Positions 11,694-38,672 of a stretch of DNA of 64,000 nt are shown here, piece after piece. A program made the position numbers and the translations under genes. The stretch's first letter is position 1; every line of letters starts with the position of its first letter. Under the pieces are notes generated by a model. It worked only from the letters and a program-made list of their open reading frames with translations. It was not told where the DNA came from and ran no database searches. This DNA comes from Strigamia acuminata. Taxonomy: Eukaryota. Location of the stretch: NCBI GenBank assembly GCA_949358305.1, contig OX442314.1, forward strand, positions 27,590,001 through 27,654,000. The letters are read 5' to 3'.

Positions 11694-12517
11694 CTACCAC
11701 GGACGCCAAACAGGTGCGCGGCTGGTCTGATGGTGAAGTGATTCCTTGTGCGACATGAGGACGGCCAAGGAGGCGTAACCGGTGGGCAGAACGTAGTCCG
11801 TCGGCCTGTGCGGCGGCGTAACGGTGCGTTGTGGTACGGGATGTGTGAGTGTGTGCTCGGGGATGGAGTCGGTATCACAAATGGGGGTCGAGCAGCTCCG
11901 CGGTGACGGAGGGGGCGTCAGGGAGGACGCGTGAATCAAGTCCAGAGACGGTCTCACGGGGTTGACACGTTTCGACAAGTGGGTGAGAAGTCGAGCGCGA
12001 ACACCCGTGTCGAGTCCGGGCATGTTGCCCAGACAGGCGGCCACTTCGCCGGCGCATTCGCTGTAGCCGGCGCAGAAGTCGGTGGCGTCGGTTCGTCGCG
12101 TGGACACGACGACGCGTCGTTGTTGGCGCAGTTCTCGCAAGTGTCGGACTGTCAGTTCGAGAATGTCGGCTTTTTCGAGCTTGGACGGCTCGCTGATGTC
12201 GTTTTTGTACGTCTCCACGAGCAAATCTTTTAATTCGGTCAGGCAGTTGTTGATACGTGCACGACGTCGTTTTTCCAACAGCGGTTTGATTACCTGGAGA
12301 AGAAAAATCAAAAATATTTAGAAACACGTTCAAAAATCATCGAAATTTAAGTTAAAAAAATTATTTTTTTGGTTTAAATTGTTTAAATTGTTTAAATTTG
12401 GAATTAAAAATTTACCTTTCTGTATTCGGAGGCTTTGGTGACTCCTCGTTCGGCGATAACGGAATTGATTTCGGCTTCGACGTCGTTGTAGACGTGCATG
12501 TTGTTGCAGGTATCCAT
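11694..12517 (-). CDS. HES/Enhancer-of-split family bHLH-Orange-WRPW transcriptional repressor (233 aa; exons 12517-12416 and 12293-11694)
   Basis: Exon 1 MDTCNN...SEYRK, a phase-0 GT-AG intron at 12415-12294, then VIKPLLEKRRRARINNCL...KLEKADILELTV (bHLH), FCAGYSECAGEV...LLTHL (Orange) and terminal WRPW*. Confidence 0.95.
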
Positions 12518-14305: not shown

Positions 14306-15125
14306 TGTGGTGACCCAGTTGGATAAGTGTCCCCCCAGGGCGGATGCTTGTCCTCTGAGTCACTGTGATTGAAGAGTCGTTCCCCCCCGAGTTGGCTCCA
14401 CCTCCCCATGGCAGGTGTGTGCCCCGAGGGGGAGGAAGCGGCTGATGGTCAGCCCCCATTGGTTGATCGCCGGCCCTTCACCCCACTGCATAAAAGGCTG
14501 TGTTTCCCGCCTAAAGTCAGAACTTACACAAACGACACCAAGAACACAGCAACTACCTCACCGTCAGGCCAACTTCAACTACAAGTTAGGATTGATCGAG
14601 GATCGCTGAGTAAAGTGCAAACTGTAACTCTCACGAAGTCACTTGCGAGCTATTCCTGCGAAAGCACGAGAATAGCCCTTGTGAAATCACCCAGAATAAT
14701 CGCCCAGACGATTATTCGCCGAAGTAAGTGTCCGAGTGCTTTGTAGGGAACCCCAAAGTTCCTAGACGAGGCCTCTGCGACGCTAAACAAACCCTAGACA
14801 ACAGGCACGGATAGAAGACTCGAAAGAGCATTCCACCGCGTCCGTGAAGACGAATCCGTGACGAATTAACGACAACTCGAGACGCCGCCTTTGTTCCGCC
14901 GACCACGCGGAATCGACGACGCCATCTTGAGAAATCCTTTGTTCGACGCTGACCACGTCGACTCTAGAATTATTACTGAGTGTATTTTAAAGGCATAAAG
15001 CCTGGTGAATAAATTACCTGTTTATTTACATACATTTAGTATTCATTTGGGTATTTGCATAATTGATCACAGGTAAAGTATTACACGTTAGCGCTATTTA
15101 AACCTATACAAAGTAGGACGCGACA
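14306..15125 (+). repeat. 5' LTR of gypsy element A
   Basis: Direct repeat of 26353-27172. The ORF translations across both copies are identical. Confidence 0.97.
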
Positions 15126-15219
15126 CGTGGGGGCCTGGCCGGGATTTAGAAATAAATCTCAAATCTGAACTTGTGATCTCTCAATAAGATAACCCAAATC
15201 GTAGAATTACCGAAAGAAA

Positions 15220-18200
15220 ATGTCAGACAAAGACGAGCAATCCACGTCTGAAACCGAGCAGAGAATGCCCGAGAAGGGAAAAAGGACCTCCGACTACCAC
15301 CTGAGATCGGATGGTCCCGTCCCTGAAATGTCCGCAAAGGCGAAAGCCCGAGCGAATAAAAGGAGAGCGAAGGCGCAGAAAGAGGAGCAAGCTGCATCGC
15401 TCGCGGCCCTAGACGGGCCAGAGCGAGAGCGGGTTCCCTTGAATATGCAACCCTTCGAGGATACCGATCCGGAAGCCATAGAAAATCGAGAAGAAATTCG
15501 CGACGTATCGCCAGGACGAGTATCGATATTGATGACCGAGGAGACGAATGAAGCTCCGAAAATAACGGTCACGGTCGGCACGAACCCATCGCCACCCACG
15601 GCTCAGACGTCCGTGGAGCAAACCCCACGAAAAAACGACGGCGGGACCCCGATAACCCCCCGAGTTACGGCGAGTCCTGCGGTTGTTTCCTTCGAGGTAT
15701 CTCACCTAATTCGGTTGACACGGCAAGCTGCCCAACTGAAAGCGATGATAGACATTCCAGTAGGAACGTCAGTCTGGGAATCGATTACTCTACTCACTGA
15801 CGCTATCTGCGCGGCACAAGCCCCGACGCCGGTCGCAAGACCAGCAGCGGAGACGCCCATGCCCCAGGTAACGCCCAGTGACACCGGAGGTTTCGCGCCA
15901 GACCCCAACCGGGCACTTCACCAATCCAGAGAGAAGGCCCGCGAAGAAGCCAGACAAGAAGCGACTAATCGCCAACGAAGACTGAGCGCAGAGCGGCGAG
16001 AACTCTGGAAGGAAGAGGAAGAAAGGGAGCAACGCGAAAGAAGAACCACCGAGAGAACAGAAAAACTGGTCCAAAAAATGAGGGAGGAACGAGAAGCTAA
16101 AATTCGAAAAGAATGGAACGCCACGGTGGAAGGGCGACATCGAGAAGCTCAAGAGTACGAGGACCAATTTCAAGCGCTCGTAGCTCAAAGAAAAGCAGAA
16201 AAGCTACAAATGTTGCGAGAAGAAGCCATTTTACAACACCAAAAATGGGAAGAACAACATCGCGAGAGGTTGAGAGAAGAGGAAGCCAGAAAAGAAAAGG
16301 AACAGTTCCTGAAAGAGAAAGAGGAATGGGACCGAGTCAGATGGACCGAAGAGTACAAAGCAAAGAAACAAGCCATAATAGATGAGCAAAAAAGATGGGA
16401 AGCCGAAAACTGGGAGAAAGAAACAGAAAAGTTCCAAAAAGAGTACGAACAAGGTGTCTCGGGCAGGAAGAAAAGGGAAGAAAACCCGAAACGGAAGTCA
16501 GAACCCCCAAGCGGCTCTGATACCGACACAGGAGAAGATGCAGCAAAGCCGGCAAAAACGGCAAAAAGGGGGAAATCTCAAAAGAGAGACGGATCGGTCC
16601 CAAAAACAAAGGACCGTCACCCCTCAAAAAGATCCGAGACGGGAGCAGCCATCGACGCGTTACTCGAAAAGAAAAACGCAAATAAAAATCGGGAACGCCC
16701 CGAGAGCGAGGAAAACAGATGGCATTCTTTTTGCGAGAACAACGACGGAGGGGAGCCGCCGCCATCCGAAGGCTCGAAACAGAAGAAGGCTGGCGGAGAG
16801 ACCCCACCGAGAGGGCCGAGGTTTCACCCCCAAGGAGATCCCTCCGAGCCCTCCGATTCGTCGGACGACGACCATCCGAGTCGACCGTCTACAGGAAGGA
16901 GTCAAGAAGGCAGCGATGGGCACCGGTCGAACCGGCCGAATGCTTCAGACCGCTCTTCCCGGAGCTCCAACCCTCGTTCAGAGGAAGGGAACTTTCAGGA
17001 CTCATCTGGCCGACATTACACGATGTCTGAGCTAGGCCGAGCCCTGCTGAACTCTTTCAGAAGAGAAGGAATCGATCTAGGCCATCCAGGCGACGAACAT
17101 AATCGCGCTGGAGAGAGGGTTAAGCGCAAATATGGCGTACGAAACGAACCAAGCAGTGAAGCCACGGGTAACATCCGCTGGCAACACTATATTCAAACGC
17201 GATTTGACGGTTCGTGGAAGGCCGGAGACCGCTTCCTGGACGAAGTAATGCGTATCAAGAAAGCGACAAAAGCCACCGTCGCCGACATGCTAACCCACGG
17301 GCTAGTGGAGCTAACTACGGGGTCAGCTCGAGAATGGTACCAGGGACTGAAAAACCCAACCTGGGACGATTTTCTCGTCCGTTTCGATCTCCGATACGGC
17401 GAGACTCCAGACGAGATCAGTAACAAATTACGGGGTCTACGACAAGCCCCAGGAGAAACATTAGCCGACTACGACGCCCGAGCGAAACTCCTGTTTGCAA
17501 GAGCGCCGTACGAAATAAACCCCGCTGGTTTTACGATGATCTTTTACGGAGGATTATCGGCCCACTCGCAAAGAATTCTGCTAGACATGCGTGCACCCCG
17601 CACTGGCGATTACCAAGATGTCAGTAACTATCTTCTAACAAACACGTTAGAAATAGAACAGCGGTATTACGCCACTCTGCCCCCGGAAGAAGCTGACGCG
17701 CACGAGAAGCGGTTGCAGACGAGCGCCGAACGCCACAAGACCTCAGAAAAATTAATGAGGCCAAGTGAATATTTGAGCGGCATAATGAGTCTCACCGAAG
17801 CATCCTTCGGACGAATGCTGACGCCTAAAGCAGGCAGTATTCTTCCAGCCAACCCGATAGCTGCCCCAAAGAAAGCACCGGCAGCGACGGCGATGCAGGT
17901 GACCTCGACGGACTCCACCCAGATGGAGAAAGTCGAAGAGACAACACCTCTCGCCACGGCTAAAGAAGAGGAGCCAGCATCGAGCGACGAGGAAGCCCTA
18001 AATGAGCACCTCGAAAACTTATCGACGGGATGCGACGATCAAGGTCCCTATTTGCACCATGCACACCGGGCCTTGGCAATCACACAATTCAGAGCACACG
18101 TGCAAGCAACAAAAGCGAGAGGAGCATTGGGAGGAAAAAGACGATTCCCGACGCCCTTCGTCCCGAAAAAACCGGGATTCACTCCCACAGGGGATAAAAG

Positions 18201-18360
18201 TAACATCAAATGTTACAGCTGTGGAGAATACGGCCACTACTCAGATAAATGTGAGAAAACCGTCAAAGAAAAGGACATCATGCAAACCATGATGAAAATG
18301 ATGATGGAGTTAAGAACTGATCTGGCAAAAAACTTCCAAGCGCAGGCGTCGCCGAAATAA
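15220..18360 (+). CDS. gag: Gag polyprotein of element A (1046 aa; long coiled-coil region, capsid-like region, CCHC knuckle)
   Basis: Follows the PBS; AREWYQGL..TWDDFL..F capsid-like motif; CYSCGEYGHYSDKC zinc knuckle. Confidence 0.92.
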   Translation: MSDKDEQSTSETEQRMPEKGKRTSDYHLRSDGPVPEMSAKAKARANKRRAKAQKEEQAASLAALDGPERERVPLNMQPFEDTDPEAIENREEIRDVSPGRVSILMTEETNEAPKITVTVGTNPSPPTAQTSVEQTPRKNDGGTPITPRVTASPAVVSFEVSHLIRLTRQAAQLKAMIDIPVGTSVWESITLLTDAICAAQAPTPVARPAAETPMPQVTPSDTGGFAPDPNRALHQSREKAREEARQEATNRQRRLSAERRELWKEEEEREQRERRTTERTEKLVQKMREEREAKIRKEWNATVEGRHREAQEYEDQFQALVAQRKAEKLQMLREEAILQHQKWEEQHRERLREEEARKEKEQFLKEKEEWDRVRWTEEYKAKKQAIIDEQKRWEAENWEKETEKFQKEYEQGVSGRKKREENPKRKSEPPSGSDTDTGEDAAKPAKTAKRGKSQKRDGSVPKTKDRHPSKRSETGAAIDALLEKKNANKNRERPESEENRWHSFCENNDGGEPPPSEGSKQKKAGGETPPRGPRFHPQGDPSEPSDSSDDDHPSRPSTGRSQEGSDGHRSNRPNASDRSSRSSNPRSEEGNFQDSSGRHYTMSELGRALLNSFRREGIDLGHPGDEHNRAGERVKRKYGVRNEPSSEATGNIRWQHYIQTRFDGSWKAGDRFLDEVMRIKKATKATVADMLTHGLVELTTGSAREWYQGLKNPTWDDFLVRFDLRYGETPDEISNKLRGLRQAPGETLADYDARAKLLFARAPYEINPAGFTMIFYGGLSAHSQRILLDMRAPRTGDYQDVSNYLLTNTLEIEQRYYATLPPEEADAHEKRLQTSAERHKTSEKLMRPSEYLSGIMSLTEASFGRMLTPKAGSILPANPIAAPKKAPAATAMQVTSTDSTQMEKVEETTPLATAKEEEPASSDEEALNEHLENLSTGCDDQGPYLHHAHRALAITQFRAHVQATKARGALGGKRRFPTPFVPKKPGFTPTGDKSNIKCYSCGEYGHYSDKCEKTVKEKDIMQTMMKMMMELRTDLAKNFQAQASPK

Positions 18361-21300
18361 ATTCAGCTTCGTCTGCGCCAGCCGCGGAAATTAAAAAGAA
18401 GAAATATCACACTGGACCCGCAGGTCATGCCTTGGCAGAGGCACAGATCAAAGACCGCATACAGATCGTTCCGAAGAAGGAGGAAAAAGTGACGTTAACG
18501 AGTATGCAAGTGAGAACGAAACCGGAGGTCGACATGGATTGGACGGACCTTCCGTTCAATCTGGAGGTTGAGCCCCAGACATTACGCGTATTTCACTGCA
18601 ATGTCACGAAAGCACATTGCGAAACTCTGTGTATGCTGCCAGTGGAGATAGAAAACCAAAAATTGTTCGGTCTACTGGATTCAGGAGCGGATCGTTCATT
18701 CATATCCGAAGATATAGTAAAAGACTTGGATATTGGAAAGAAGGTGGCACAAGTGAACGCGAACGTAGAATTGCTCACCGCCAACGGCTACGTCAAGCCG
18801 AAGGGCGTAGTTCGCATCATGATCGACTGGACGGGGGGGAACCTGTCCCACCCCTTCATAGTCTTGCCATCCCACGACAAAGTATTCCTCCTAGGGATGG
18901 ACATCATGGCGAAACTGAAAATTCAGCCAAACCCGATAACCCGTTCATGGAACTGGATAAGTCCCGAGGGAGAACGGTCAGTCCCCGTAGTTCCCCAAAA
19001 ATTACTGGACGAAGCCAAGGACAAAGAGGAATACGGAAGAGGATTGCGAAAATTCGTCCAAGATTACGATTTCGCAGCCTTCACTCTGGAATTACAGAGG
19101 AGTAACGTCGTGGACACCCTGGTCGGGGAGGCAGCACTGCGTGTTAACGAGGCATCGCTACTAAGGCGAGTGCTTCGAAAGCATGAAAGAATTCTGACCA
19201 AGACACCTGGTCGAACGACGGAAGCAACACACGAAATAGTCTTAACCACAGACAAGCCGATTCGAGTGCCTTACAAGGGGATGAACCCCCAGAAAAGAGA
19301 CATCGTGACGCAAATGTGCCAAGACATGCTCGACAAGGGCATAGTAACGCAAGCCCTGGGCGAATACGCCATGCGGATCGTCCTGGTGATGCGTCCAGGC
19401 TCGGAACCTCGACTATGCATTGATTATCGCCCCCTGAACGCGATAACGGTTATTGACCCGATTCAGATGCCGTCTATAGACTCGATCCTCCGGGAACTGA
19501 GCCCGTTCAAGTGGGTAACCACCATGGACCTGTCAAAGGGGTATTGGCAAGTGGAGCTAAAACCCGAAGACAAACTGAAAACGGCTTTCTACTCCCCGAT
19601 AGGAAGACTAATGTTCAACGTGATGCCGTTCGGGCTTGTAAACGCCCCGAGCACGTTCCAGAAACTGATCGAAAGCGTGTTGGGAGATATGCTGCACGAC
19701 TTCGTGTGGGCGTATCTCGACGACATCATAATAACGTCGGACACATTCGAAGAACATATAGACCACATCGATAGAGTGGTCTCTCGCCTAGCCAAGGCAG
19801 GACTCCACATCCATCCAGGGAAGAGCAAGTTTTGCAGGAAAGAGCTTGCCTTCCTAGGATATCGAATAGGAGTCGAGGGAATCGCGATTGACCCCGAAAA
19901 AGTCAAAGCAATAAACGGATTCCCCGCCCCCGAAGATATAAAAGGTGTCCAGAGATTCATGGGCATGGTCAATTTCTTCGGCCGACTACTCTCTGGTCTG
20001 GCTGAAGTGGCCGCGCCTATAACGGATCTCTTACGAACGGATAAAGAGTTTGAGTGGACGGTCCAGTGCGAGGCCGCATTTAGCACTATCAAGCAAATGC
20101 TGGCTGACGTCGAAAAGATGCCATTGCCGGACCTAAACCGACCGTTCGTGTTGCACACCGACGCGAGTAAAATCGGACTGGGTGCAGCCCTTCTGCAGAC
20201 CCACGTGTACAACGGAATCTCGCAAGAAGTACCCTGTATGTTTATAAGCAGAAAAATACAGGGCGCGGAGAAAAATTATACGGCAACGGAACTAGAATGC
20301 CTAGCCGTAATTTGGGCAGTTCGGAAATTTCGCGACTATCTGGAGTACACGAACTTCGAGGTTCAGACAGATCACCAGGCACTAAGCTGGTTGATGAAGC
20401 TCAAGGAACCCTCCGGCCGACTCGCACGATGGCAACTGGAGTTAATGGCGTGCGATATAACAATTACGTACCGCCCCGGGAAGTACAATCATGTGGCCGA
20501 CGCCCTCTCGAGAGCCCCAGCCTCTGACCCCCAGGGACCAGACGACGACGGCGAGGACGACACCCACCTCTTGTACTGCCCGACTCCACGGAGAATATGG
20601 CGTTTGCGAAAGGCGAACGAGCTACCAGTGATGGAGCCTGAAGATAGAACGTTTTGTGGTTTTTGGACTCGAACATACCAGCCAGCTGGGACAAACAATT
20701 CAACATCCGAAATTCAATCTCCGCCCCCCGGAGAAACCCACAAAACACTACTACGCGCCTTCACAGCAAAAATTGAAGAAAAAACACAATACGCTCCACC
20801 CACGAGACGTGAGTTCGTCGAACACCAGGCAGCAGACACAAAATGTCAAATTATAACGCAATATTTGCTGAACGGCGAATTTCCGGAAGGGATGACAAAC
20901 CCACACCGCCGGAAACAGTTCGTCAAAGAAGCAACAAGCTACCTCATAGATGATGAACTCCTGGTAAAATACCACCCGACGTTTCAAGATGACCTCAGCG
21001 GAGCGGGAAACTCGGTTAAAGTGGTCGTGCCGGCATCGCTGCACACCCGACTGTTGTGGCTGATGCACGGACACCCGCTCGCCAGCCATTCTGGCGTGGC
21101 GAGGACCCTTTATCGAGTAAAACAACTTTTCTTCTGGCCGGGCGCGCGGCAAAAGATAACGAAATTTATCCGACACTGCCCCCGGTGCCAAGCGTGCAGA
21201 CCGCGAGATAAAGTGGCCAGAAACGCCATGTCTCTCGGACCCTACGCACCGTTTGACTGCTTAAGCATAGACTTGATGGGCCCCAAGCCCACAACGGGAA

Positions 21301-22463
21301 ACAAGAACATGTATATTCTCGTAATTATGGACGTGGCCACCCGATGGCCGGAGCTGTACGCCCTCGCGAAGCCCTCGGCTGAAAACATAGTCGAGTGCCT
21401 TTACGACGTGGCAATGCGATTTGGGTTTCCCAGAAAACTCATTTCGGATAACGGCCCCCAATTCCGATCGAGAATATATAAGGACTTCTGTAGAAAATTT
21501 AAAATGGATGCATCAAACACCTCCACGTATAATCCTCAGACAAACCCAGTCGAGAGATTAAATAAAGACATAAAATATGCGCTGACAGTATTCACCGATA
21601 TTCACAATCGATGGGACGAATACCTGCGAGAAATCGCTTTCAGCATTCGCTCAACCGTGTCAAGAACACGCGAATTCTCACCGGCGTACCTCAACTTCGC
21701 CCGCGAATTAAGGATGCCATGGGACCCACGCGTTGCCGAAGCTGTTAACGTATTAGACCCATCGAGCCCACACGAGTACGTGTGCCGGTTGGAACAGACT
21801 ATATCCGACACATACCAGCATATGATGGCGCATATTTTCAACATGAGAGAAAGAATCGCAGATAAAGAAGGCGATCTCGCTTTCGCGAACTTTAAAGTGA
21901 ATGATCTAGTGTGGAAGGAGGCACACACGTTGTCCAATGCAGCGAGGGGCATCGCCGCAGGTTTAGCCGACAAGAGGGACGGTCCCTATGTAATTGTGGC
22001 CGAACACGGCGGCAACGCATACCAACTACGCCGCTTAGAGGACAACAAAAATTTTCAGTCGATACATGGCCGAGATTTAAGGCCATATCTGCCAGAGTTT
22101 CCCCAAGAAATCTGGCTGGAAGGTCAGACACACAGCGGCCAAGGGGGCACCGTGGTCGACACGTTCCAAAAAACAAATGAAGCTGAAAATATAGCGGAGG
22201 ACGAGGATGAATTCTTCGACGCCGAATCTCCGGCCGACGAGGCTCCAGCACAGCCGGAGCAAGCAATTTCGGAGAGGGAGGAAGCAGAAGAAAGTACTTC
22301 TGAAATGGAAAATAAAAAAATTAGTAATGAGAAAAATGCCAACACATCGGAGATGAACGAGCAAGTAGAGTCACGATCTACGAGCACGTCGAAAATCAAC
22401 CTTCGACCACGACGAAGCAATAATCCGTTCATTCGGGACGGCAAAGTCGTGGGGAAGAACTAA
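18333..22463 (+). CDS. pol: Pol (protease-RT-RNase H-integrase) of element A, expressed by -1 frameshift from gag
   Basis: LLDSGA protease, YLDD RT, TDAS RNase H, HGHP..H..C..C and DDE integrase motifs. The -1 frame is open from the A AAA AAC site at 18327-18333. Confidence 0.95.
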   Translation, partial: LPSAGVAEINSASSAPAAEIKKKKYHTGPAGHALAEAQIKDRIQIVPKKEEKVTLTSMQVRTKPEVDMDWTDLPFNLEVEPQTLRVFHCNVTKAHCETLCMLPVEIENQKLFGLLDSGADRSFISEDIVKDLDIGKKVAQVNANVELLTANGYVKPKGVVRIMIDWTGGNLSHPFIVLPSHDKVFLLGMDIMAKLKIQPNPITRSWNWISPEGERSVPVVPQKLLDEAKDKEEYGRGLRKFVQDYDFAAFTLELQRSNVVDTLVGEAALRVNEASLLRRVLRKHERILTKTPGRTTEATHEIVLTTDKPIRVPYKGMNPQKRDIVTQMCQDMLDKGIVTQALGEYAMRIVLVMRPGSEPRLCIDYRPLNAITVIDPIQMPSIDSILRELSPFKWVTTMDLSKGYWQVELKPEDKLKTAFYSPIGRLMFNVMPFGLVNAPSTFQKLIESVLGDMLHDFVWAYLDDIIITSDTFEEHIDHIDRVVSRLAKAGLHIHPGKSKFCRKELAFLGYRIGVEGIAIDPEKVKAINGFPAPEDIKGVQRFMGMVNFFGRLLSGLAEVAAPITDLLRTDKEFEWTVQCEAAFSTIKQMLADVEKMPLPDLNRPFVLHTDASKIGLGAALLQTHVYNGISQEVPCMFISRKIQGAEKNYTATELECLAVIWAVRKFRDYLEYTNFEVQTDHQALSWLMKLKEPSGRLARWQLELMACDITITYRPGKYNHVADALSRAPASDPQGPDDDGEDDTHLLYCPTPRRIWRLRKANELPVMEPEDRTFCGFWTRTYQPAGTNNSTSEIQSPPPGETHKTLLRAFTAKIEEKTQYAPPTRREFVEHQAADTKCQIITQYLLNGEFPEGMTNPHRRKQFVKEATSYLIDDELLVKYHPTFQDDLSGAGNSVKVVVPASLHTRLLWLMHGHPLASHSGVARTLYRVKQLFFWPGARQKITKFIRHCPRCQACRPRDKVARNAMSLGPYAPFDCLSIDLMGPKPTTGNKNMYILVIMDVATRWPELYALAKPSAENIVECLYDVAMRFGFPRKLISDNGPQFRSRIYKDFCRKFKMDASNTSTYNPQTNPVERLNKDIKYALTVFTDIHNRWDEYLREIAFSIRSTVSRTREFSPAYLNFARELRMPWDPRVAEAVNVLDPSSPHEYVCRLEQTISDTYQHMMAHIFNMRERIADKEGDLAFANFKVNDLVWKEAHTLSNAARGIAAGLADKRDGPYVIVAEHGGNAYQLRRLEDNKNFQSIHGRDLRPYLPEFPQEIWLEGQTHSGQGGTVVDTFQKTNEAENIAEDEDEFFDAESPADEAPAQPEQAISEREEAEESTSEMENKKISNEKNANTSEMNEQVESRSTSTSKINLRPRRSNNPFIRDGKVVGKN

Positions 22464-22843
22464 AAATAAAAGAAAATGTGATAACATGGAGCGGAGGCCT
22501 TGTAAAATAAAAAGATTTACTTACGAGAGCTGCTGCACATGTTGAAACGCGAAAATTTGGCTAAGTCCAAACTTCGCAACGAATTGTCGCAGTCACCACT
22601 AACAGACGAGAAGTTATGACGTATCGGGCGACCACGTGACAATGAAACCACGCGGTCGACCCCGTAGCGTCATTGCCAGCACGGCGGATCTCGCAAAATA
22701 CGAGACGCGTTCGAGACCCACAATTCTCAGCGTCGATAGGCCCAGTTTCCGACTGTTTTTAACACGACGAGACGTGTTTTTGCTTCTCCCCCAAAGAGAA
22801 AGACAAAGACCTCTCAAACAAAACTTCATTTTCCTAAATTGAA

Positions 22844-25800
22844 ATGGCCGATCGACGCAACCCACGATTAGAGCCGAGCGCATCGTCGAGAGACGAGAGC
22901 GACGGCCTAATCGTAAATGCAGAAGACGATGAGAATTGGGACGAACAACCGCCGTTGCAGGTAAATTAGTGTGATTTCCCCAGAGAAATCACATAATTCT
23001 TTGAATCTGTTGCATCCAACCCAGATTGGAGCGTGACTTGTGACTGATATATTTCTTTCTGTTTTATTGTTGATTTAAGGCTGGCTAAAAACCCGAGAGT
23101 GGACCCAGATTCACCTCGGAGTCAAGGCCGCCAAAAAACTAGAACAAAGGAAGTGTTCGCGGAATGGCGTCGTGGCAAACCAAAACCAAAACTAAAGGTT
23201 TTCTTTCTTTTAAATTTAAACATCGTAATAAATTAAAATACGATTAGAGTTAAAATAAAAAAGTTTAACGTAAGAAATTAAAATTTAACGATCGGTTTTG
23301 CCTGCGACCCCTTCCAAAAAAGCGGATCACCTGAGTTCAAAAGTAGTGTTGGATCAGCGCTACGACGGCGGAGATCATCGCAGAACTGCGAAACAAGAAA
23401 ATAAGACCGACGGCCGCAACAAAAGAAAGGAGTTGCTGCCACCGTCGATCTTGAGCATATTTCTGATCCCCATCGTTAACTGGGATTTATTATATTAATC
23501 TTGTGATCTAAAATTATTCAGGTCGACCCGCTAGAATCGTGGGACGCCCTGCCTCCGACGGCGTCAACCGCCAACAACATCTTTCGCGGAGCCCTGCCGA
23601 TTTACCTGCGGCAGGCCTATCCTGCAGAGACCAGCGCCTGGAAAATCCGATTGATGTATTCCAGGACCCTCGAGGAAAAATTCGAGCGATCAAAAACGCT
23701 GGTCGAGTGCATGACGAAGGAGATGAGGGAGCGAGTGGGGCCGCGGATCCCACCCGATGCGGATCCGCCGAGCCCCGTTTACTCCGGGTACCTGGAAGAG
23801 GCTTACCCAGGCACGGTGGCCGAGCTGCACACCTCCCATAGGTGGAGCGAGGCCCCGACCTTGGCAGCCCGCCAGAGAATAGTGGACGACGAGATCAAAC
23901 GCTTAAAGCGCACCGAGACTCACGGAGTAACCCGAGTTCTCGAGAGAAACGGTTTCTCCCCCGAAGAAATCCGTAGATGGCTTCGCGACATCGAAGAAGA
24001 TCATCTGACACCCAGATGGATACCGCCGGCGAATTTTACGGCCACGCAGTCTGAGATGTGGCAGTTATACCACGCTGGTATCCTGGGAAGTCGCCGCCAT
24101 CACAGAAGATCGAAGCGTCCGGCGGAGTCCGCCCCACGCGGACCCGCACGAAGAAGACAGGCCGTCTCCCCAATAGAGGCCGGCCCGTCAACGAGCCGCG
24201 ACTACCGCAGCCGCTCGAGCAGCTCCAGTTCCCGAACTCGAGTTGTCGTGCGCTCGGAGTGTCGCCGAGTAGTAACGCTCGAGCCTGCCTCGCCAGACGA
24301 CGCGCGGGCTGAGCGAACAGTCGAATCTTCCGCCCACTGGGCTGCGAGGACCGAGACACACCAAGATCGAGGAAAGAAAAGATCCTCGTTGTTCATGGCG
24401 ATTACCACACAGTCGTCAGATCAATCCTCGTCGCGACGAACCGTCTCATCACACCAGAGACCGAATTCTCCGACGGACGTCCCCCAGAGGACGGCCCAAC
24501 GAAGATCCGTCGCAGCCAGCACCCGGAGGAATCGAAAGCGCAAAGTACGTCAGAAGTTGCGAGCACAATCCCTGATAGCTAAGGGATTAGAGAAGGAGCG
24601 AGAGATGGCCGCCGCGAAACGGTCCGAACCCCAGAGTCTCGGACCCACGGCTGGACCGTCCAGGCGCCAAGCAGAGATTGATTTGGGAGAGTTGACGGAA
24701 GAGCAAATGTCCCCAGATGAGTCGGACAAAGATGGGCCGGTTACAAAACAGGATCTGGCCGTAGCATTGAAGAACGCCTTCCGAGGATACGCGGCCAACC
24801 GGCCGTCGGGCTCAACACCGGCTGTGCCCACCGCGCTTGTGCCCCCACAAGTGCAATCGCGATGGCCGCCACTCCTCGAGGGTACAAACCCAGCCGTGAC
24901 CGCTTGGACTCCTCCCCGGATGATTCCGGTGGGGGATCCAGCTCCGAAGCGGGTCAGATACGATAATCTACCCGGGCTGGGCCGTCCACCGTCACCCCCA
25001 ACGCCACGAGTGTGTCGACCTTATCGCAACGCCGAATGGTACGCCCAGCGAGAGATGGACGCTCGATGCCGGCGTGAAGCGGCCTATCCCCCACTCAGCG
25101 AGCTACAAGAATATCTGGCCGAATACGAGAACCCCGCGATTGCCGAGTTGGCCATACGACAGGCCGACGCCGCCCAAACCCACCACATCAATTGGGCGAT
25201 CGAACAGATGCGGACGCTGTCACAACAATTCAGTGGCAATCCGGACCGCGCTCACCCCTGCCATCGGAGCAGTTTGAATTTGGCAGTGACGAACGTCATG
25301 GCCCAGCTGCTGTCCCTGGGCGTCTTCTTGGACAGTCGGCAGGCTATGGCGGCCTGGACAATCGTCGACCGTGAGGGAGTTCACCTTCCTCGGGCGTTGT
25401 ACCAGGTATGGGCCGGATGGACTCCTGAGCCCGCCTCGCTGCGCTTCGACCTGGCCAGGAATACGGAGAACCCAGGCCTGCAGTTTTCGAAGATGCGTTC
25501 GTTGGCATTCCGCTACCGGAACCCCGGAGTCCACCCTTCCTTGTTGCGAACAATTCGGGAGGCTCCGGAGATACCGGGAACGACAGCGAGCCTCCCACAG
25601 GCCATCGAGACCGCCCCCCCAGAGGCGGCGGTCCAACCATACATACCGACCCCAAAGCCGGTATTCCCAAAGGAGAAGCGGTATGCGAATCGACCCAAAT
25701 TGATTCCGAAGCGCTCCAACCGAGGACCGCGAACTCCTCCGCTGCCCTCTCCTTCGCCACCAGCGGCAGAGCTGGCCGCTCTTACAACAGAGCCGGCTAC

Positions 25801-26308
25801 GCCACCGTTGGAGAGTCCAATGGAGATTCCACTTCCTCCATCGCCTCCGCCGCCCCCAGCAGCGCAGCTTTATTTGAGGCTGGGAGTGGAATACCCCTTC
25901 CTTCAGATGTCGGAGTTCACGCGACAACGCATCATTGACTCCGATGATCACGGCGAGTCGGTCCTCAAATGGCTGAACAGAGAGGCCCGATCTACCATGG
26001 ACGCCGTCTTCCATCGCCGAATCTTGCGAGCCCACCGGAAACCCGGATCGAGCGCCGAGTCGCGAAGGATCCGGCTCGTTCCCGACCGATTCCCGGCATC
26101 CACCCGGATTTGGATCCACGAACGTACGGGACTGATTGGCGAGCCGGTCGGCGGTCACCCGCAGTACTTCATCAACGAGCGACAGAATCCTGCGGATCTG
26201 ACAACCTCTCTGCCCCCGGATTTACCACCGCCGCCCCCGGCAGTGCCACCAGTGATCCTCCGCCCATGCAGAGGAGTGCTGCCGGCTCTTCGCAGAGGAG
26301 AGCGATAA
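22844..26308 (+). CDS. Spliced accessory ORF3 of element A, unknown function, not Env (predicted exons 22844-22960 and 23522-26308; ~967 aa)
   Basis: ATG exon of 39 codons ending CAG|GTAAAT (phase 0); acceptor TTATTCAG| at 23521 is in frame with the 885-aa ORF; homologous to ORF3 of element C. Confidence 0.75.
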
Positions 26309-26352
26309 AATTGAGATCGCTCCGATCCGAGATCGAAGCTGGAGGAGGGACG

Positions 26353-27172
26353 TGTGGTGACCCAGTTGGATAAGTGTCCCCCCAGGGCGGATGCTTGTCC
26401 TCTGAGTCACTGTGATTGAAGAGTCGTTCCCCCCCGAGTTGGCTCCACCTCCCCATGGCAGGTGTGTGCCCCGAGGGGGAGGAAGCGGCTGATGGTCAGC
26501 CCCCATTGGTTGATCGCCGGCCCTTCACCCCACTGCATAAAAGGCTGTGTTTCCCGCCTAAAGTCAGAACTTACACAAACGACACCAAGAACACAGCAAC
26601 TACCTCACCGTCAGGCCAACTTCAACTACAAGTTAGGATTGATCGAGGATCGCTGAGTAAAGTGCAAACTGTAACTCTCACGAAGTCACTTGCGAGCTAT
26701 TCCTGCGAAAGCACGAGAATAGCCCTTGTGAAATCACCCAGAATAATCGCCCAGACGATTATTCGCCGAAGTAAGTGTCCGAGTGCTTTGTAGGGAACCC
26801 CAAAGTTCCTAGACGAGGCCTCTGCGACGCTAAACAAACCCTAGACAACAGGCACGGATAGAAGACTCGAAAGAGCATTCCACCGCGTCCGTGAAGACGA
26901 ATCCGTGACGAATTAACGACAACTCGAGACGCCGCCTTTGTTCCGCCGACCACGCGGAATCGACGACGCCATCTTGAGAAATCCTTTGTTCGACGCTGAC
27001 CACGTCGACTCTAGAATTATTACTGAGTGTATTTTAAAGGCATAAAGCCTGGTGAATAAATTACCTGTTTATTTACATACATTTAGTATTCATTTGGGTA
27101 TTTGCATAATTGATCACAGGTAAAGTATTACACGTTAGCGCTATTTAAACCTATACAAAGTAGGACGCGACA
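26353..27172 (+). repeat. 3' LTR of gypsy element A
   Basis: Direct repeat of 14306-15125, preceded by the PPT and followed by the TSD. Confidence 0.97.
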
Positions 27173-30975: not shown

Positions 30976-32563
30976 TGTGACGGTTACACTGTCATACACT
31001 TGTTAGTTAGGACGTTTATTTTGTCAATAGATGGCGCTGATACGTTTTAGCGGCAATTTCAAATTTCGACAATTTTTGAGTGAATAAAATATAAATTACT
31101 ATTTATATTTTATTCCACTGCAACTTTATACACTTTTAAATACTTTTGGATGTTTAAATACTAGTTGATTTATTTGTCACATAATTCTATTGAATTATGT
31201 GCAAACTCTACACCTGGTGAAGTCACCCCCCATCACCCACTGTGAGTTGGACTCCTTTTGGATTATAGTCAAAGGGACTTAATCCAAAATGTGTCCTGCG
31301 TATCCAGTTCCTGTAGTGGACCTAGTAGAAGACTATGTCCTGAGTATCCACTTCCTATGATCTGGGATTGGATGGATTTGACTGCCCAGTGATCCCATTG
31401 GATCACTGAACAGCTATTCTCCTCACCGAGTATATATCCCCCTGCAAAACGGATATAGCTCGCTCTTGTTCTGTTTTTGTTTGATACTGATATTACTTGA
31501 GCACATATTATACTTCTCTGCGTTCCGACAATCCGTTGTAGAAATACCTTGTATTTAGTGTAAGTATCTAGAGTGGGTAGAAGACTCACAGACACACTGC
31601 CCGCCTCTTCATGCCAACATTCCGTTGTAGAAATGTAGTAACTAGAGTGAGTAATTCACAGACACATTTAAGTGTAGTATCTAGAGTGGGGTACAACCCA
31701 CAGACGCACTCCCTCCAGCTTCATGCCAACATTCCGTTGTAGAGTGCAGAATCTAGAGTGGAGTAAAATTCACAGACGCATTGGTAATGTAGAATCTAGA
31801 GTGGAGTATTTATATTTCACAGACGCATTATCAGAGTGATCGACGCGGAGTAATTTCCCGGTTACTCTCCCGCCAGCCAGGACCGAGTGGAGTAATTTCC
31901 CGGCGATGGATAACCTTTCCTGCGAGATATTTCGATTCAATTCGTTATTGGTTTGACGGAACATTTAAGTCTAACTTAGATGTTGATTGCACTCGGGGCA
32001 AAAAATAGCTCGGCGCTATTTTAATATATTTTACTTATTTTCATAGTTTTAGTTAAGTTTGTGACTCTAAAATATCATGATTAATTCCATAGAATTAATA
32101 TGAATATTTATTCTCACATTGTTACATCTCGCGGTAATTATTGATTACAACAATTATCTGCGATGCGATGTGTGTGACGATACAGAAAAGTCAACCGCAC
32201 CTCTCGGATATAACCCACCCAGCCTAACCATTTACACGCCTTTTAGAACCAAACCCCGGACCATTTAGAAGCCAAAGCCATTCATAGATGACATCTTTTA
32301 CGTCACAGCAATAAGACCGTTACAAATTCTTATTGCATGACTGAAGCCTTCAAATGATATTATTTCAGGGCTTTTGCCAAATAACTGTATAGTTTAACTT
32401 ATCGTCATTTTAGCCACTTGTAGGCATAGTATTTATATAAGGTTCAAACCGGAATAAATGTTATATGTTTTGAGAAAACATCAGGTTTGCATATTTTACA
32501 CTTTCACACAGATAGTTCACACTTTAGTTTAGCAATTGCTATCTCCAGAAGGTAATCGTCACA
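30976..32563 (+). repeat. 5' LTR of gypsy element B (internal TCTAGAGTG..CACAGAC tandem repeats at ~31525-31835)
   Basis: Direct repeat of 38673-40260. Confidence 0.96.
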
Positions 32564-33433
32564 CGTGGAGGTTCCACCGAGATAGGTTGCATTTTATTGA
32601 AGTGAACTCTGTGATCAAGTGTAAAATTGAAAAATGAATTTTCTTGATTATTTTATATAGATATTATAATTAGAAAATTTCCGATTTTTCTCTATAAATT
32701 TACTGTGAAATATTCATTTGTTTTCAAAAAATTCTCATTATCTTTTGGAAATATTTGAAGTCGAATTTTTGGATTATTTTGAAAACTCATTATAATTCCG
32801 AATTTCGTACAAAAAATCTATTTTGATTTTGTTGAGTTTCCCAGAATATTCGGCTATATTCTGGAAAATTTTGAAACCCTAAATTTCGATCAAAAAACGA
32901 TTTTGACCAGAATTTCTGCTAACGAAGGATAAAAAGTTAAAATATTTTATTTTACTGGTTGAAAACTTGACTAGTTTTCTATTGTTCTGTCAATGTTAGG
33001 AATTATGATTTTTAATCCCTGACAAGGTAAAGAATGTGCCAAAGAGAGCCACTCACGATGCAGCTCGGAGTAGGTCATCCAGATGTGACATTGTTGAGAA
33101 TTTCGGATTAGAAATTATCAGAAATTTTTCAACATCGCCAATCACAGCAGACTGTCTTGACAAAGGAGATTTTCCGGAAGCTAGTTTGACAACCAATATT
33201 CAGCCACACTTGCTTTTCGACAGTGCGACCATCCAGTTGTGCCTTTGTGACCAGTGCCCGTTTGGACCATTCTTGACCACGCAATAGGACAGTTTTTCCG
33301 AAGCCACTTCAGTTTCAGCAGCTAAGGTTGTATTTTTTCAAATTATTTCTTAGTTTAATATTAAGCGTGTTACATTTACGCTAGTTCAGTTAAAGTTTAT
33401 TTTTTCTTTTGTACGTGTATTTCTTTGAGTATT

Positions 33434-35482
33434 ATGGCCCGTAGACCTGTAAGAGTTCGTGGAACACGAGGAAATCGTGGAGCACGACGACGTGGTGGTA
33501 TGTGTGAAACACCAAGAGGAATTGTGGAGTCTGATTTAGAAAGCCAGGGGGAAGAAAATGTTCCTAGAGACGTTTCCAACCCAGGTAGTTCTCAAACGGA
33601 TCCACTATCCGTCCCGCATGATTTAGAGGTTTACTGTCGCCATTACCAATTGGAAGTGACGCAGTTTTCCTCTTTGTGTGAAGCTCAACAATACACGGCG
33701 AATAATCATCACGAGAGAAATCGTGCAATTACTCCCGATGTAGTTGTAACCAACGAACAAAGTGTTTCTGTAGATCGAACTGGCCCTCGTTCACCGGCCA
33801 CATATCGCTACCAGCAATTACCTGGATGGCGAATGAATGTTGCTCGTGACGGCCATGGACAGTTAAATTCTTCACTATCTGTTCAACCTTCGATTCAGTT
33901 ACCAGCTAGTTCTTGGCGATCGAATTCGGCCGAAAGAATGGGAAATTCCGGACAAGGAAATATTTCTGCGCCAATTTCCCGAAATTTGCCAAGTGCGACG
34001 GCAGTAAATAATAATTTACCCGCTCCCACTGGGAATTTGAATGATTCTTTCCGAGTTCCACAGCCTCGAACTAATCTGTCGGTCCTACCAAGGGGGAGAA
34101 ATGAAAATTATCAAAATTTTCAATCTCACACCCAAGCTGATGGAGATTTTAGGAATTATAGAAATTCCCGCTCTCAAGGTGGACGAGCTCCGCCGAGAAA
34201 TCAACGATTTCCCGGAGCTCCTGGTGACCCTCGTGACTCCGATCCTAACTCGAGTAGTGACGAATCTCACGCTGGTGGAGGGGGAAATTATAACAATAAT
34301 TTCCACCGACGTAATAATTCTCGTTCTCCTCCGCCACCTGATAGACGCCAAAATTTTCAAGGAGAGCCAAATCCGCCACCCAGAGACCAAGAAAGTCGGT
34401 CTATACCCAATTCGAACTCTGCTTCTAGTTTGTCAGACGAAAATGTAAAACAAATTATTCAGGGTTTAGTTGGTCAAATCCGAAGCCCGAGTAATCCCAG
34501 TCAGAATTTTGGAAAAGGAATCGAGATTCCTATTTTTGACGGGAAACAGACAGAGGTTGCGCGATTCCTTGAAATCGTCAAAGCTGTCGCACTCGGGAAA
34601 GGCATCCCTTTAGACGACATGGTACACACTGCTGTACCTGGACGACTATTAGGCCATGCACAACGTTGGTTCCATAAGCAACGCCATACTTTTAACAGTT
34701 GGCGAACTTTCGAAGCCTCTTTTCTCGATTGTTTCGACCTCGTTCCACTTACAAGAGAAAGGCGACTTCTTAATGTAAAACAACGAGCCGACGAGTCACT
34801 TTATAGTTTTCTTCTGCGTTATACGCAAGAACAAGGTGAAGTGCCGCCAGGTGATAAAACTGGACGCGCGCAATTATTCGACAATCTAACTCAAGAAAGT
34901 TTCACGGCGTTATGTACACAAGGAATGTATGGTAACTTTACAGTAGATGACATTCTACAATATGTAGGAGCAAATCGCTCTAAGTTTGAAAGTTCTCAAC
35001 TTGCAGCCAAATTGGAGTACGATAATCGAGAGAATCATCCTACTCCCAAGCTTCACGAAAAATCTAAGATTTTTCCATCCAAAACTTCACTACGTTTAAC
35101 GCAAACACAAGATGAAGTTGAAGATGAAGACGAGTCGGAAAATGACGACTCAACTGACGATGGTTCAATGGAGCGATTATTTGCCGCCCAGTATGAAAAG
35201 ACTACTGGAAAATGCTTTTTCTGTCACGAGCCTGGACATTTTAAAAGAGAATGTCCCGCTCTTGCCAAAAAATTAGCAGGGAAATCAGACTCGTTAAATA
35301 CAAATAAAAGATTTAACCACTCTGCTCCCAACCCCGAGTTTAAACGACCCAAACAAAATTGGGTTACGTCAGAAACTTTAGACTCCAAATTTACTGACTT
35401 CCAGAAAAACATGGTTGACCTGTTAATTAAGCATTTACCAGCAGCCACTGAGTCAGTCACTCCCGACGAGACAAAAAACTGA
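33434..35482 (+). CDS. gag: Gag of element B
   Basis: AQRWFHKQ..FNSWRTFEASFL capsid-like motif; CFFCHEPGHFKREC knuckle; first ATG at 33434. Confidence 0.9.
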   Translation: MARRPVRVRGTRGNRGARRRGGMCETPRGIVESDLESQGEENVPRDVSNPGSSQTDPLSVPHDLEVYCRHYQLEVTQFSSLCEAQQYTANNHHERNRAITPDVVVTNEQSVSVDRTGPRSPATYRYQQLPGWRMNVARDGHGQLNSSLSVQPSIQLPASSWRSNSAERMGNSGQGNISAPISRNLPSATAVNNNLPAPTGNLNDSFRVPQPRTNLSVLPRGRNENYQNFQSHTQADGDFRNYRNSRSQGGRAPPRNQRFPGAPGDPRDSDPNSSSDESHAGGGGNYNNNFHRRNNSRSPPPPDRRQNFQGEPNPPPRDQESRSIPNSNSASSLSDENVKQIIQGLVGQIRSPSNPSQNFGKGIEIPIFDGKQTEVARFLEIVKAVALGKGIPLDDMVHTAVPGRLLGHAQRWFHKQRHTFNSWRTFEASFLDCFDLVPLTRERRLLNVKQRADESLYSFLLRYTQEQGEVPPGDKTGRAQLFDNLTQESFTALCTQGMYGNFTVDDILQYVGANRSKFESSQLAAKLEYDNRENHPTPKLHEKSKIFPSKTSLRLTQTQDEVEDEDESENDDSTDDGSMERLFAAQYEKTTGKCFFCHEPGHFKRECPALAKKLAGKSDSLNTNKRFNHSAPNPEFKRPKQNWVTSETLDSKFTDFQKNMVDLLIKHLPAATESVTPDETKN

Positions 35483-38139
35483 TTCAGGGGGTTGTTCAAG
35501 TTGCCCAACCCCCGCTTAAAGAGTTGTTTCCTCTCTCGGAATTGTCAAATGATTTATTTTCACGAAAAGATGAATTTAAATTAAGACATAAGCCTAGTCA
35601 TCTCACAGTACCTTATGTCGATGATTCAAAGAATAAACCACCATCGTTGGTCATTTCTTACGAAGCAGTACCTGTCTGTCGAAAGTCTAGCAGCTCTACT
35701 GGCGGTGTCGATGAAAATTTAAAAGTCATGACAGACCAACTAGAAAATTTGAGTATTTTCAGTGGACGCTGGAATGCACCGAAAAAACCGCTTGTACCCA
35801 AAGTTTTCAAGTTAAGGAAAATCCTTAAACTTGAAAAATGGAACAATAAAGATCGAAAAGAGTTTCTTGGCAAACTTTGCAATAGCAAATTAATTAATGG
35901 TGGCAAAGATGATCCGCGTATGAATGTCCAAATTGGAGGTTTAGATTACAACGCACTAATGGACTCTGGAGCCACCCAATGTTTTATTGGAGTACAACTC
36001 CTTTCAAACACCGAAATTCCGGTGGAATTCATACAAGAATGTCCCCGCGGAATGCGTGTCTGCGCAGTCGGAATAGATCACCGACCTATCGGTCAAGTTT
36101 GTCTTTGTGTCAAATGGGCCGATAAAAAGAGAGTTACACCTATGACCTTCATAATTCTACACAAGAATGTATGTGGGTTGATTTTGGGTCACAATTTTAT
36201 GCGTAGAACGGGGATAAACCCTAATCCCCGACGGGCTGTGTTCACCTGTGATGACATGCCCGGATGGACAGCACCATACGAGACCACTGAACTTAACTGT
36301 TGTTTAGCAAGCATTAGGACTTTGGGTCTCCAAGGTGAAGGAACTCCCACTTCACCTGACTGGGCAGAAAAACTCGTCGAAGGCTGCAACAGCTCGGCGG
36401 AAGAAAAACAGTTACTCGTAAACGTTCTTTTGCAATTAAAAAACGTATTTCGAGATCAATTGGGCTGTACGAAGGTGGCCAAGCACAGCATCAAGTTTAA
36501 ACCTGGTGCTACTTGGAAACACCAGCCGTATAGAATGTACAATCCGGCCAAGAAGGCGATTATGACGGAATTGGTCGAGGAACTAGAGGCCGATGGGTTA
36601 ATCGAACCTGCCACTGGCCCTTATATAAGTCACCCCGTCATAGTGGCTAAACCCGGCGGGAAGTATCGATTATGTATCGACTACCGCTGGTTGAATGCGA
36701 TCACAGAAGTTGATGCAATTCAAATGCCAAGTATTGACCTATTAATTCACCATACTAATCAGGCCAAGTACTTTACATCCATTGATTTAACTAAAGGTTA
36801 TCATCAAATGGAAATGGAGGAGGAGGATAAGAGCAAAACTGCTTTTTACACTCCAAAAGGCAAATTTCAATTCAAGAGATTGCCATTTGGTCTTTGTAAT
36901 GCACCTAGTTCTTTTCAACACCTCATGACTACCGTATTGGGTGACTCTCTATATAAACATGCTCTAGTTTATTTAGACGATATAATTATTTTTTCCGACA
37001 CTTGGGAAAATCATTTATTACATATTAAAGACGTACTTGAGAAGTTAGATGCCGCAAATCTAACTATCAATAAAGACAAGTCAAAATTTGGTCGAACATC
37101 ATTACGATTTTTAGGCCATTTAATTTCCGAGGGATCTCTTCTTCCAGACCCGGACAAAGTCTCGGCTGTAAGGAATTTTCCCAAACCGACTTGTTCTAAA
37201 GACATTCAGAGATTTGTAGGACTTGCGAATTTTTTCCGAAAATTCATTCCTAACATCGCAAATATTGCTCGTCCATTGACCAATATTATGCATGATCAAG
37301 CAAAGTTTGTGTGGGATGATCCACAAACAACTGCATTCGAAACTATCAAAGATATTTTGTGTGACAAGGACCAAGCCCTTCTCCACATGCCAGATATGAA
37401 TAAGCCTTTTGTCATTTTGACAGATGCTTCTCATTCAGGCTTAGGTGCAGTACTCTGCCAAGATGTCGAGTTATTCTGTGAAAAGAAACAGAAATTAATT
37501 ATGGTCCCAAAAGCAGTCGCGTACGCCAGTCGAGTGTTACACGGGGCCGAAGTAAGGTATTCTACGCCGGAATTGGAGTGTTTGGCCGTTGTATGGGCAA
37601 TCGAGAGATTTCGCCCATATATAGAATACACGACTTTCACTCTCGAGTCCGATGCTAAGGCCCTTAGCTGGTTGATGAGTACGCCGGAACCTTCGGGAAG
37701 GTTTGGTCGTTGGGCCGTCAAAATACAATGTGGCGCGTTTAAAATTATTTTTAGACGCGGTGCAATGAACCAAGTAGCGGACGCATTATCACGCGCTCCA
37801 CTGTCTGCACTAGACACTCCGGATTACGATTATATCGAACCAGAGGAAATCACCCATTTCTATCCAACTTGGAATGGAAACAGGTGTGCATCTTTACAAG
37901 TGACGGAAACTGAGCACAAACATTTTCTTACAAATGTTGGCCTTAGTTTAGACTTTTTCTCAGAATCATATAATCCAGTTAGATTTCATGATTCTGGAGA
38001 AAAGGGGGAGGAAGAAGGATGTACAAGAGAAAATTGCAGACATATAGATGTCCACAATTGTAATCACGAAAATGTACACACGGCACTAACAGATATCCTA
38101 AAAGTAGTTCCGCCGACGCGAGATGAAATTAAGAGTTAG
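35479..38139 (+). CDS. pol: Pol of element B: protease-RT-RNase H only, ending before integrase
   Basis: LMDSGA, YLDD and TDAS motifs; ends at PPTRDEIKS*; -1 frame from A AAA AAC at 35473-35479. Confidence 0.92.
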   Translation: MIQGVVQVAQPPLKELFPLSELSNDLFSRKDEFKLRHKPSHLTVPYVDDSKNKPPSLVISYEAVPVCRKSSSSTGGVDENLKVMTDQLENLSIFSGRWNAPKKPLVPKVFKLRKILKLEKWNNKDRKEFLGKLCNSKLINGGKDDPRMNVQIGGLDYNALMDSGATQCFIGVQLLSNTEIPVEFIQECPRGMRVCAVGIDHRPIGQVCLCVKWADKKRVTPMTFIILHKNVCGLILGHNFMRRTGINPNPRRAVFTCDDMPGWTAPYETTELNCCLASIRTLGLQGEGTPTSPDWAEKLVEGCNSSAEEKQLLVNVLLQLKNVFRDQLGCTKVAKHSIKFKPGATWKHQPYRMYNPAKKAIMTELVEELEADGLIEPATGPYISHPVIVAKPGGKYRLCIDYRWLNAITEVDAIQMPSIDLLIHHTNQAKYFTSIDLTKGYHQMEMEEEDKSKTAFYTPKGKFQFKRLPFGLCNAPSSFQHLMTTVLGDSLYKHALVYLDDIIIFSDTWENHLLHIKDVLEKLDAANLTINKDKSKFGRTSLRFLGHLISEGSLLPDPDKVSAVRNFPKPTCSKDIQRFVGLANFFRKFIPNIANIARPLTNIMHDQAKFVWDDPQTTAFETIKDILCDKDQALLHMPDMNKPFVILTDASHSGLGAVLCQDVELFCEKKQKLIMVPKAVAYASRVLHGAEVRYSTPELECLAVVWAIERFRPYIEYTTFTLESDAKALSWLMSTPEPSGRFGRWAVKIQCGAFKIIFRRGAMNQVADALSRAPLSALDTPDYDYIEPEEITHFYPTWNGNRCASLQVTETEHKHFLTNVGLSLDFFSESYNPVRFHDSGEKGEEEGCTRENCRHIDVHNCNHENVHTALTDILKVVPPTRDEIKS

Positions 38140-38672
38140 TCAGGTTCAGGTGTATTTTATGCCGTTTTTGTGAATAATTCAAAGATCTTTAATAGTTAAT
38201 TTAACAATTCTGTTAAAATTTGATTACGAGTCAATGTGAGTTTGTTTATATGAATACTAATTTTAATACTTGAATTTTAACGTGTAAAGTGTTATTTTGC
38301 AAATCATTATATTTCCAGTGAGAAGTTAAGTTTTGTGAAAATAATTGTTAAATTTTATTAATCATTTGTTTGGTACAAGAGTTTGATGTTAGTTTAAGTT
38401 ATCGCCTTTTCTTGATGCAGTTGTAAGTCCACCTGTAAAGAGAGATGGAAGTTATTATTGATAATTGAAAGTTTTATAACCCTAATAAATATTTTTTGAA
38501 GCATTTGATTAAGAAATACTCTTTATTTATACTATTAAGATATAAAATAAAGGTTTTTACTTACCAAGGATTACAGCTCCAGTTCCATAGATGACAGTGT
38601 GGTCTTGATCCTCAAGATATTCGGAATAAATAGTATGTTAATACAGGTATTAACATATATTTAAGGGGGACT

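Follow-up and report, generated by a model that had tools for sequence, protein, structure and literature searches.

A non-Env third gene, predicted to be spliced, in two sister Ty3/gypsy elements of Strigamia acuminata and its possible role in handling element RNA

Two Ty3/gypsy elements in a 64,000-nucleotide stretch of Strigamia acuminata DNA (the window) carry a long third gene, here called ORF3, at the position where errantiviruses encode Env. What does this gene encode, and what might it do for the elements? The window is animal DNA, with a Med8 gene, a bHLH-Orange gene with a WRPW end and an ASC/pickpocket-type exon, and it holds four LTR elements: A and B on the forward strand, C on the reverse strand and the copia element D (Table 1). 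In both A and C the gag and pol frames are open, RVT_1 is found and the domains follow the gypsy order. TG...CA LTRs, a primer-binding site, a polypurine tract and a short target duplication (TGTT in A, AAAT in C, 4 bp each) are further Ty3/gypsy traits of both. We take their primer-binding sites to be tRNA-Pro-like. In A, pol overlaps gag in the -1 frame with a site A AAA AAC, which also occurs in the gag/pol overlap of C. Element A is present at high depth in a pair of contig sets (kind unrecorded) from a single study. We conclude that A and C are recent insertions of recently active, high-copy elements. About 100 bp from C lies a short remnant (56155-55990, -) that resembles the end of a mariner-type transposon and the start of its transposase.

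Table 1. Coordinates of host genes, repeats and element features along the window.
Feature	Position	Strand	Remarks
AT-rich minisatellite arrays	1654-2200 and 4363-5424		20-21 bp unit
Med8 host gene	9287-10159	-	apparently intronless
HES/Enhancer-of-split-like host gene	11694-12317	-	bHLH-Orange, WRPW end
Element A	14306-27172	+	Ty3/gypsy, intact
A 5' LTR	14306-15125	+	820 bp, TG...CA; same sequence as 3' LTR
A primer-binding site	15127-15144	+	
A gag	15220-18360	+	long charged N-terminus, capsid region, zinc knuckle
A pol	18321-22463	+	PR-RT-RNaseH-integrase-SH3
A pol-ORF3 spacer	22464-22843	+	
A ORF3 predicted exon 1	22844-22960	+	39 codons, acidic (11 D/E)
A ORF3 predicted intron	22961-23521	+	phase-0 GT-AG, 561 nt
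A ORF3 main exon	23522-26308	+	928 codons + stop
A ORF3 N block	23564-24076	+	helical prediction, low confidence
A ORF3 middle block	24989-25477	+	helical prediction, low confidence
A ORF3 C block	25871-26188	+	C model: helices, then two strands
A 3' LTR	26353-27172	+	polypurine tract just before
Element B	30976-40260	+	gypsy; LTRs identical (1588 bp); target duplication
ASC/pickpocket channel-type exon	41794-42234	-	host; between elements B and C
Element C	55878-43048	-	Ty3/gypsy, intact
C 5' LTR	54801-55878	-	1078 bp; primer-binding site next
C gag	51817-54708	-	
C pol	47348-51868	-	PR-RT-RNaseH-integrase
C ORF3 predicted exon 1	46874-47137	-	88 codons, acidic (16 D/E)
C ORF3 predicted intron	46520-46873	-	phase-0 GT-AG, 354 nt
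C ORF3 main exon	44300-46519	-	739 codons + stop
C ORF3 blocks	46474-46016, 45511-45047, 44656-44318	-	
C 3' LTR	43048-44125	-	same sequence as C 5' LTR
Copia element D	58446-63021	-	one 1365-codon ORF; 198-bp LTRs near-identical

An initial annotation had described a long intact frame between integrase and the 3' LTR in both elements, and we find the same. The frames are free of stops over 23507-26308 in A (933 aa stop-to-stop) and 46543-44300 in C (747 aa), beyond the longest ORFs in 2000 base shuffles (433 and 307 codons). Three blocks occur in the same order in both proteins, with 27% identity overall (45/166, 41/150 and 27/101 residues), and all of the block motifs quoted earlier are present in the translations. 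The three-block alignment, which had been set as a test, is significant: the blocks score 76, 98 and 102 against shuffle means of 30, 31 and 26, and none of 2000 shuffles reaches any of these scores. Aligned over their whole length, the proteins score 211 (0/300 shuffles), and the result was the same when they were shuffled locally, over 20 residues, so as to preserve where low-complexity stretches lie (0/300, maximum 105). BLASTP detects the middle and N blocks (3e-05 and 4e-05) and misses the C block, which tblastn finds at 1e-06. The linkers and first exons show no likeness between A and C beyond composition (255, 258 and 781 of 1000 shuffles), and the ORF3 DNA of the two elements gives no blastn match. 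An antisense open frame of 333 codons (25220-26221, -) runs across the 3' half of A ORF3 and is likely a by-product of high GC.

The first conserved motif occupies main-exon codons 24-27 and the first in-frame ATG comes after it, at codon 45 in A and 77 in C, so that translation would have to begin in an upstream exon or at a codon other than ATG. In each element we predict a spliced two-exon mRNA, encoding 967 aa in A and 827 aa in C. Both predicted first exons begin with ATG and end at a GTAAAT donor. The introns are AT-rich, contain in-frame stops, finish with a CAG acceptor and end 23 (A) and 24 (C) codons ahead of the same conserved motif. In A no other path than this join stays in frame, and in C it is the better of two such paths. 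Scored with a crude, self-made splice matrix, the A donor is tied for the top of 522 GT sites and its acceptor is first of 949 AG sites; in C the donor is 8th of 572 and the acceptor 9th of 729. The A intron also contains two GC-richer, coding-looking stretches (23080-23200 and 23300-23480, +), with splice-like signals (acceptor at 23079, donor at 23270). These are possibly alternative exons, and no in-frame path reaches them from the ATG at 22844.

Several features suggest that ORF3 is maintained as a protein. At 66 of the 116 identical block residues, A and C use different codons. Comparing element A with its other copies, in tallies that cover 40 of 478 variant rows and 12 of 21 indels, synonymous changes made up 4/5 of the variants in the ORF3 main exon, 0/1 in exon 1, 12/18 in gag and 5/5 in pol. 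The 12 indels include four of 1 nt, in the spacer and intron, and one of 3 nt at the ORF3 stop; none is a frameshift in an ORF3 exon. Contig pieces about 82-86% alike span the middle and C blocks, so the gene, in whatever state of its frame, occurs in one further family or more. Because the blocks are conserved between free linkers, the frames are open, third codon positions have diverged and the 1-nt indels fall outside the exons, the view that ORF3 is a selected protein-coding gene is supported, by good evidence from a small sample.

Selection had originally been argued from retention across divergent elements with dissimilar LTRs and diverged Pol, and here the argument needs revision. A and C are 49% identical in Pol, 57% in integrase and 31% in the Gag capsid region, and they form a 100/100 clade in both the RT and the integrase tree (49 RT rows and 53 of 56 integrase rows kept after short-match rows were left out). 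A selected coding gene stands, but one in sister elements rather than distant ones: since A and C belong to one lineage, ORF3 was inherited from their common ancestor. Their LTRs do lack a blastn match, yet begin with the same 10 nt and have a few words in common (7-16/500 shuffles). The best integrase identity of A or C to 54 database matches is at most 36%. Moths, beetles, spiders and an ant supply the named nearest Pol matches, a range that makes an arthropod source likely. The matches include no named reference element of a clade such as Osvaldo/Woot, and the RT and integrase trees place A+C differently and on a long branch. Judged by these comparisons, the A/C lineage is isolated. Its sister in the RT tree is element B (100/99), whose pol stops cleanly at 38139, ahead of integrase, and which has no ORF3. 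By its sequence, B is a recently inserted, integrase-less element, and as such it must borrow integrase and other functions.

To what family does ORF3 belong? The protein has no Pfam match at E 0.1; searched block by block, it returned a Bcl-2 row alone, sub-threshold at E 0.081. There was no NCBIfam or PDB sequence match, profiles of the middle and C blocks found no relative among 1.84 billion proteins, and word searches found none either. Profile searches recognized no RNA-binding, DNA-binding or chromatin domain, and the A-C pairwise alignment shows no clear cluster of conserved catalytic residues. With mean pLDDT of 35 and 42, the fold models are too weak for fold assignment. A word search of the literature, a scope distinct from curated transposon libraries, found no description of the family, in agreement with the initial annotation, which had not recognized it. 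We regard ORF3 as a real orphan family of accessory genes, apparently one that is undescribed. Gypsy-type elements with non-Env third genes are already known, and this family adds a further one.

Hydropathy bears out the earlier statement that no signal peptide or transmembrane helix is evident, save for one borderline internal window in A (KD19 1.65; best in C, 1.09). Exon 1 reaches only -0.57 in A and 0.52 in C, so there is no N-terminal hydrophobic stretch, and a C-terminal anchor is likewise missing. None of the six cysteines in A ORF3 aligns with a cysteine in C. The proteins resemble errantivirus F-type and HSV/gB-type Env in lying between integrase and the 3' LTR and in their predicted spliced expression, and differ in lacking a signal-peptide-like or clear transmembrane stretch, conserved cysteines and a Pfam Env match (PMC13524379). 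An F- or gB-type Env was rejected on these sequence features, which upholds the view that ORF3 is not the Env known at the errantivirus position. A fusogen of the sORF2/FAST type was also rejected. Such proteins are described as small and single-pass, with an MGxxxS/T start and fewer than 150 cytoplasmic residues (bioRxiv 10.1101/2025.03.14.642691), whereas ORF3 has 827-967 aa and starts with MAD or MEG.

Other accessory genes provide closer or more distant parallels. The sORF1 and sORF2 genes of the Drosophila MDG1 group are, like ORF3, selected accessory genes in env-less gypsy elements; sORF1 stains in nuclei, sORF2 is a membrane protein, and both differ from ORF3 in being about 70-110 aa long, mostly 5' of gag and unspliced (bioRxiv 10.1101/2025.03.14.642691). 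LTR elements of bdelloid rotifers also retain a non-Env ORF3 within a lineage, but these are recognizable enzymes, a GDSL esterase and a DEDDy exonuclease, whereas the A and C proteins match no family (PMC5408684). The Cer1 element of C. elegans, also Ty3/gypsy, encodes CERV, a nuclear protein of 517 aa needed for export of unspliced genomic RNA. Gag-region exons supply its N-terminal half, and its three predicted domains, joined by flexible linkers, include a ring-forming middle domain with an essential invariant cysteine loop and a G-protein-like C domain (PMC10309623). ORF3 resembles CERV in being a fast-evolving, lineage-restricted, non-Env ORF in the env slot, with a spliced mRNA (predicted for ORF3) and three domains or blocks between flexible linkers. 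It differs in its size, in an exon 1 that in the simplest model lies downstream of pol, in having no cysteine common to A and C, and in showing no detected homology; CERV's function has been shown, that of ORF3 is a proposal.

Complex retroviruses make regulators such as Rev/Rex and Tax from spliced 3' genes with basic segments. ORF3, with its predicted splicing and basic segments, looks similar to these and to foamy Tas, but it is far larger, sits in a Ty3/gypsy element and has no sequence link to them. By analogy, ORF3 may work like CERV or Rev; we do not class it as a member of either group.

Among the functions proposed by the initial annotation, RNA export or splicing control is the one we rank first, tentatively and on weak evidence. 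ORF3 would be a soluble nuclear regulator that promotes export, or limits splicing, of the element's own RNA, a reading we hold to be plausible while stopping short of calling it probable. Here we infer that ORF3 is spliced and translated, locates to the nucleus, binds RNA and acts in export. The spliced mRNA would be exported in the usual way, and the protein, once back in the nucleus, would bind the element's intron-containing genomic RNA and license full-length RNA that retains the strong intron. Because the intron is kept in the DNA of both lineages, the RNA that was reverse transcribed presumably had to retain it. We count the layout match with CERV in favor, since both have the Env slot, three blocks with flexible linkers and splicing, predicted in ORF3. 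Base composition counts too: GC3 (A/C) is 0.65/0.61 in ORF3, 0.57/0.32 in pol and 0.53/0.31 in gag, a split that is sharp in C. Rev-dependent and Rev-independent messages of HIV differ in composition, and the likeness to that split is why we weigh it. The proteins carry basic clusters, and R+S make up 38% (A) and 47% (C) of the linker stretch tested; RS/SR dipeptides are enriched in C only, and C lacks a K[KR]x[KR] nuclear signal.

The folding of the RNA is harder to read. Sense RNA folds stably throughout the elements (mean z against shuffles -2.8 for A over 15200-26350, -3.5 for C over 44130-54700 and -2.7 for B over 32600-38600), whereas the copia element and host DNA stay between -0.5 and -1.2. 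In favor of the export reading, some of the strongest folding is seen at the pol end and in the spacer (360-nt z of -7.0 and -6.1 in A, -4.4 and -5.1 in C). The strongest hairpin of A lies directly 3' of its pol stop. The A intron is unstructured at the 120-nt scale (mean z -0.6). With structure so widespread and the A intron lacking it, no specific response element stands out. We also count against the export reading the missing RNA-binding domain, the lack of a conserved cysteine or of a sequence link to CERV or Rev, and the recent insertion of B without ORF3, though B is without integrase as well. In many gypsy elements, env is spliced although they have no such export protein.

A doubtful alternative makes ORF3 a transactivator of transcription or an anti-silencing factor that acts on the LTR, analogous to plant VANC or HTLV Tax; an internal promoter in the spacer might drive its expression. 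The acidic first exons of A and C cannot be aligned with each other, and both traits are common in activation regions. The LTRs of A and C have one GTRAGT donor each (GTAAGT at 14724 in the A 5' LTR), and the acceptors that would join it to exon 1 score poorly (215 of 949 in A, 94 of 729 in C). Both spacers contain TATGACGTA, CACTAACAG and CACGTG, 160-303 nt 5' of the ORF3 ATG, words that we take to be CRE-like and E-box-like. In A they may mark an internal promoter, at marginal strength, for the shared words were found post hoc (133/2000 shuffles, 159/3937 window pairs). The C LTR holds five spaced copies of a GAGYTTRCTC-like word (55288-55095 and 43535-43342, -), and the B LTR has related GGAGTAA words on the opposite strand, but the A LTR has none, and a DNA-binding or chromatin domain was not detected. 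Foamy viruses, with an internal promoter and Tas, offer a precedent (PMC7828637). As a separate observation, CGCCAT(C/T)TT occurs at 14920 in the A LTR and at 55061 in the C LTR, each exactly 7924 nt 5' of the ORF3 ATG. The word is presumably YY1/Pho-like, and the equal spacing is probably a coincidence.

It is unlikely that ORF3 is instead a cytoplasmic accessory factor, be it a suppressor of piRNA/siRNA defense, a scaffold for particle assembly or RNA condensates, or a non-membrane helper of cell-to-cell movement. A large, basic, partly disordered, multi-block protein could serve in this way, and the blocks, at 27% identity, diverge faster than Pol, at 49%, as host-conflict genes presumably do. 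However, the Gag capsid regions diverge at about an equal pace, so the rate is not diagnostic, and basic clusters with an Arg/Ser-rich linker better suit a nuclear protein. We consider capture of an enzyme or host domain, since diverged beyond recognition, an improbable origin for ORF3; rotifer elements set a precedent (PMC5408684), ORF3 base composition is unlike that of gag and pol, and fold models this weak leave room for a known fold, but neither a family match nor an obvious catalytic cluster was found and the prediction is mostly helical. That ORF3 is a degenerate Env or non-functional passenger is very improbable: the Env position and the borderline window in A favor the former, but the Env features listed above are absent, and both frames stay open with protein blocks kept despite the loss of DNA similarity and the codon differences.

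There is also a broader scenario that we regard as rather unlikely in its entirety: an invertebrate gypsy lineage would have independently evolved the layout of a complex retrovirus, with a large three-domain regulator of a new family, its own internal promoter, a conserved intron, control of RNA export or of the LTR, and action in trans on B. In the literature searched, Cer1 is the sole gypsy-type element found with a trans-acting RNA-export protein that has been shown to act. ORF3, if the export reading is true, would be a second, unrelated and larger regulator that might supply up to three new domains, and it would show that animal retrotransposons have invented retrovirus-like regulation more than once.
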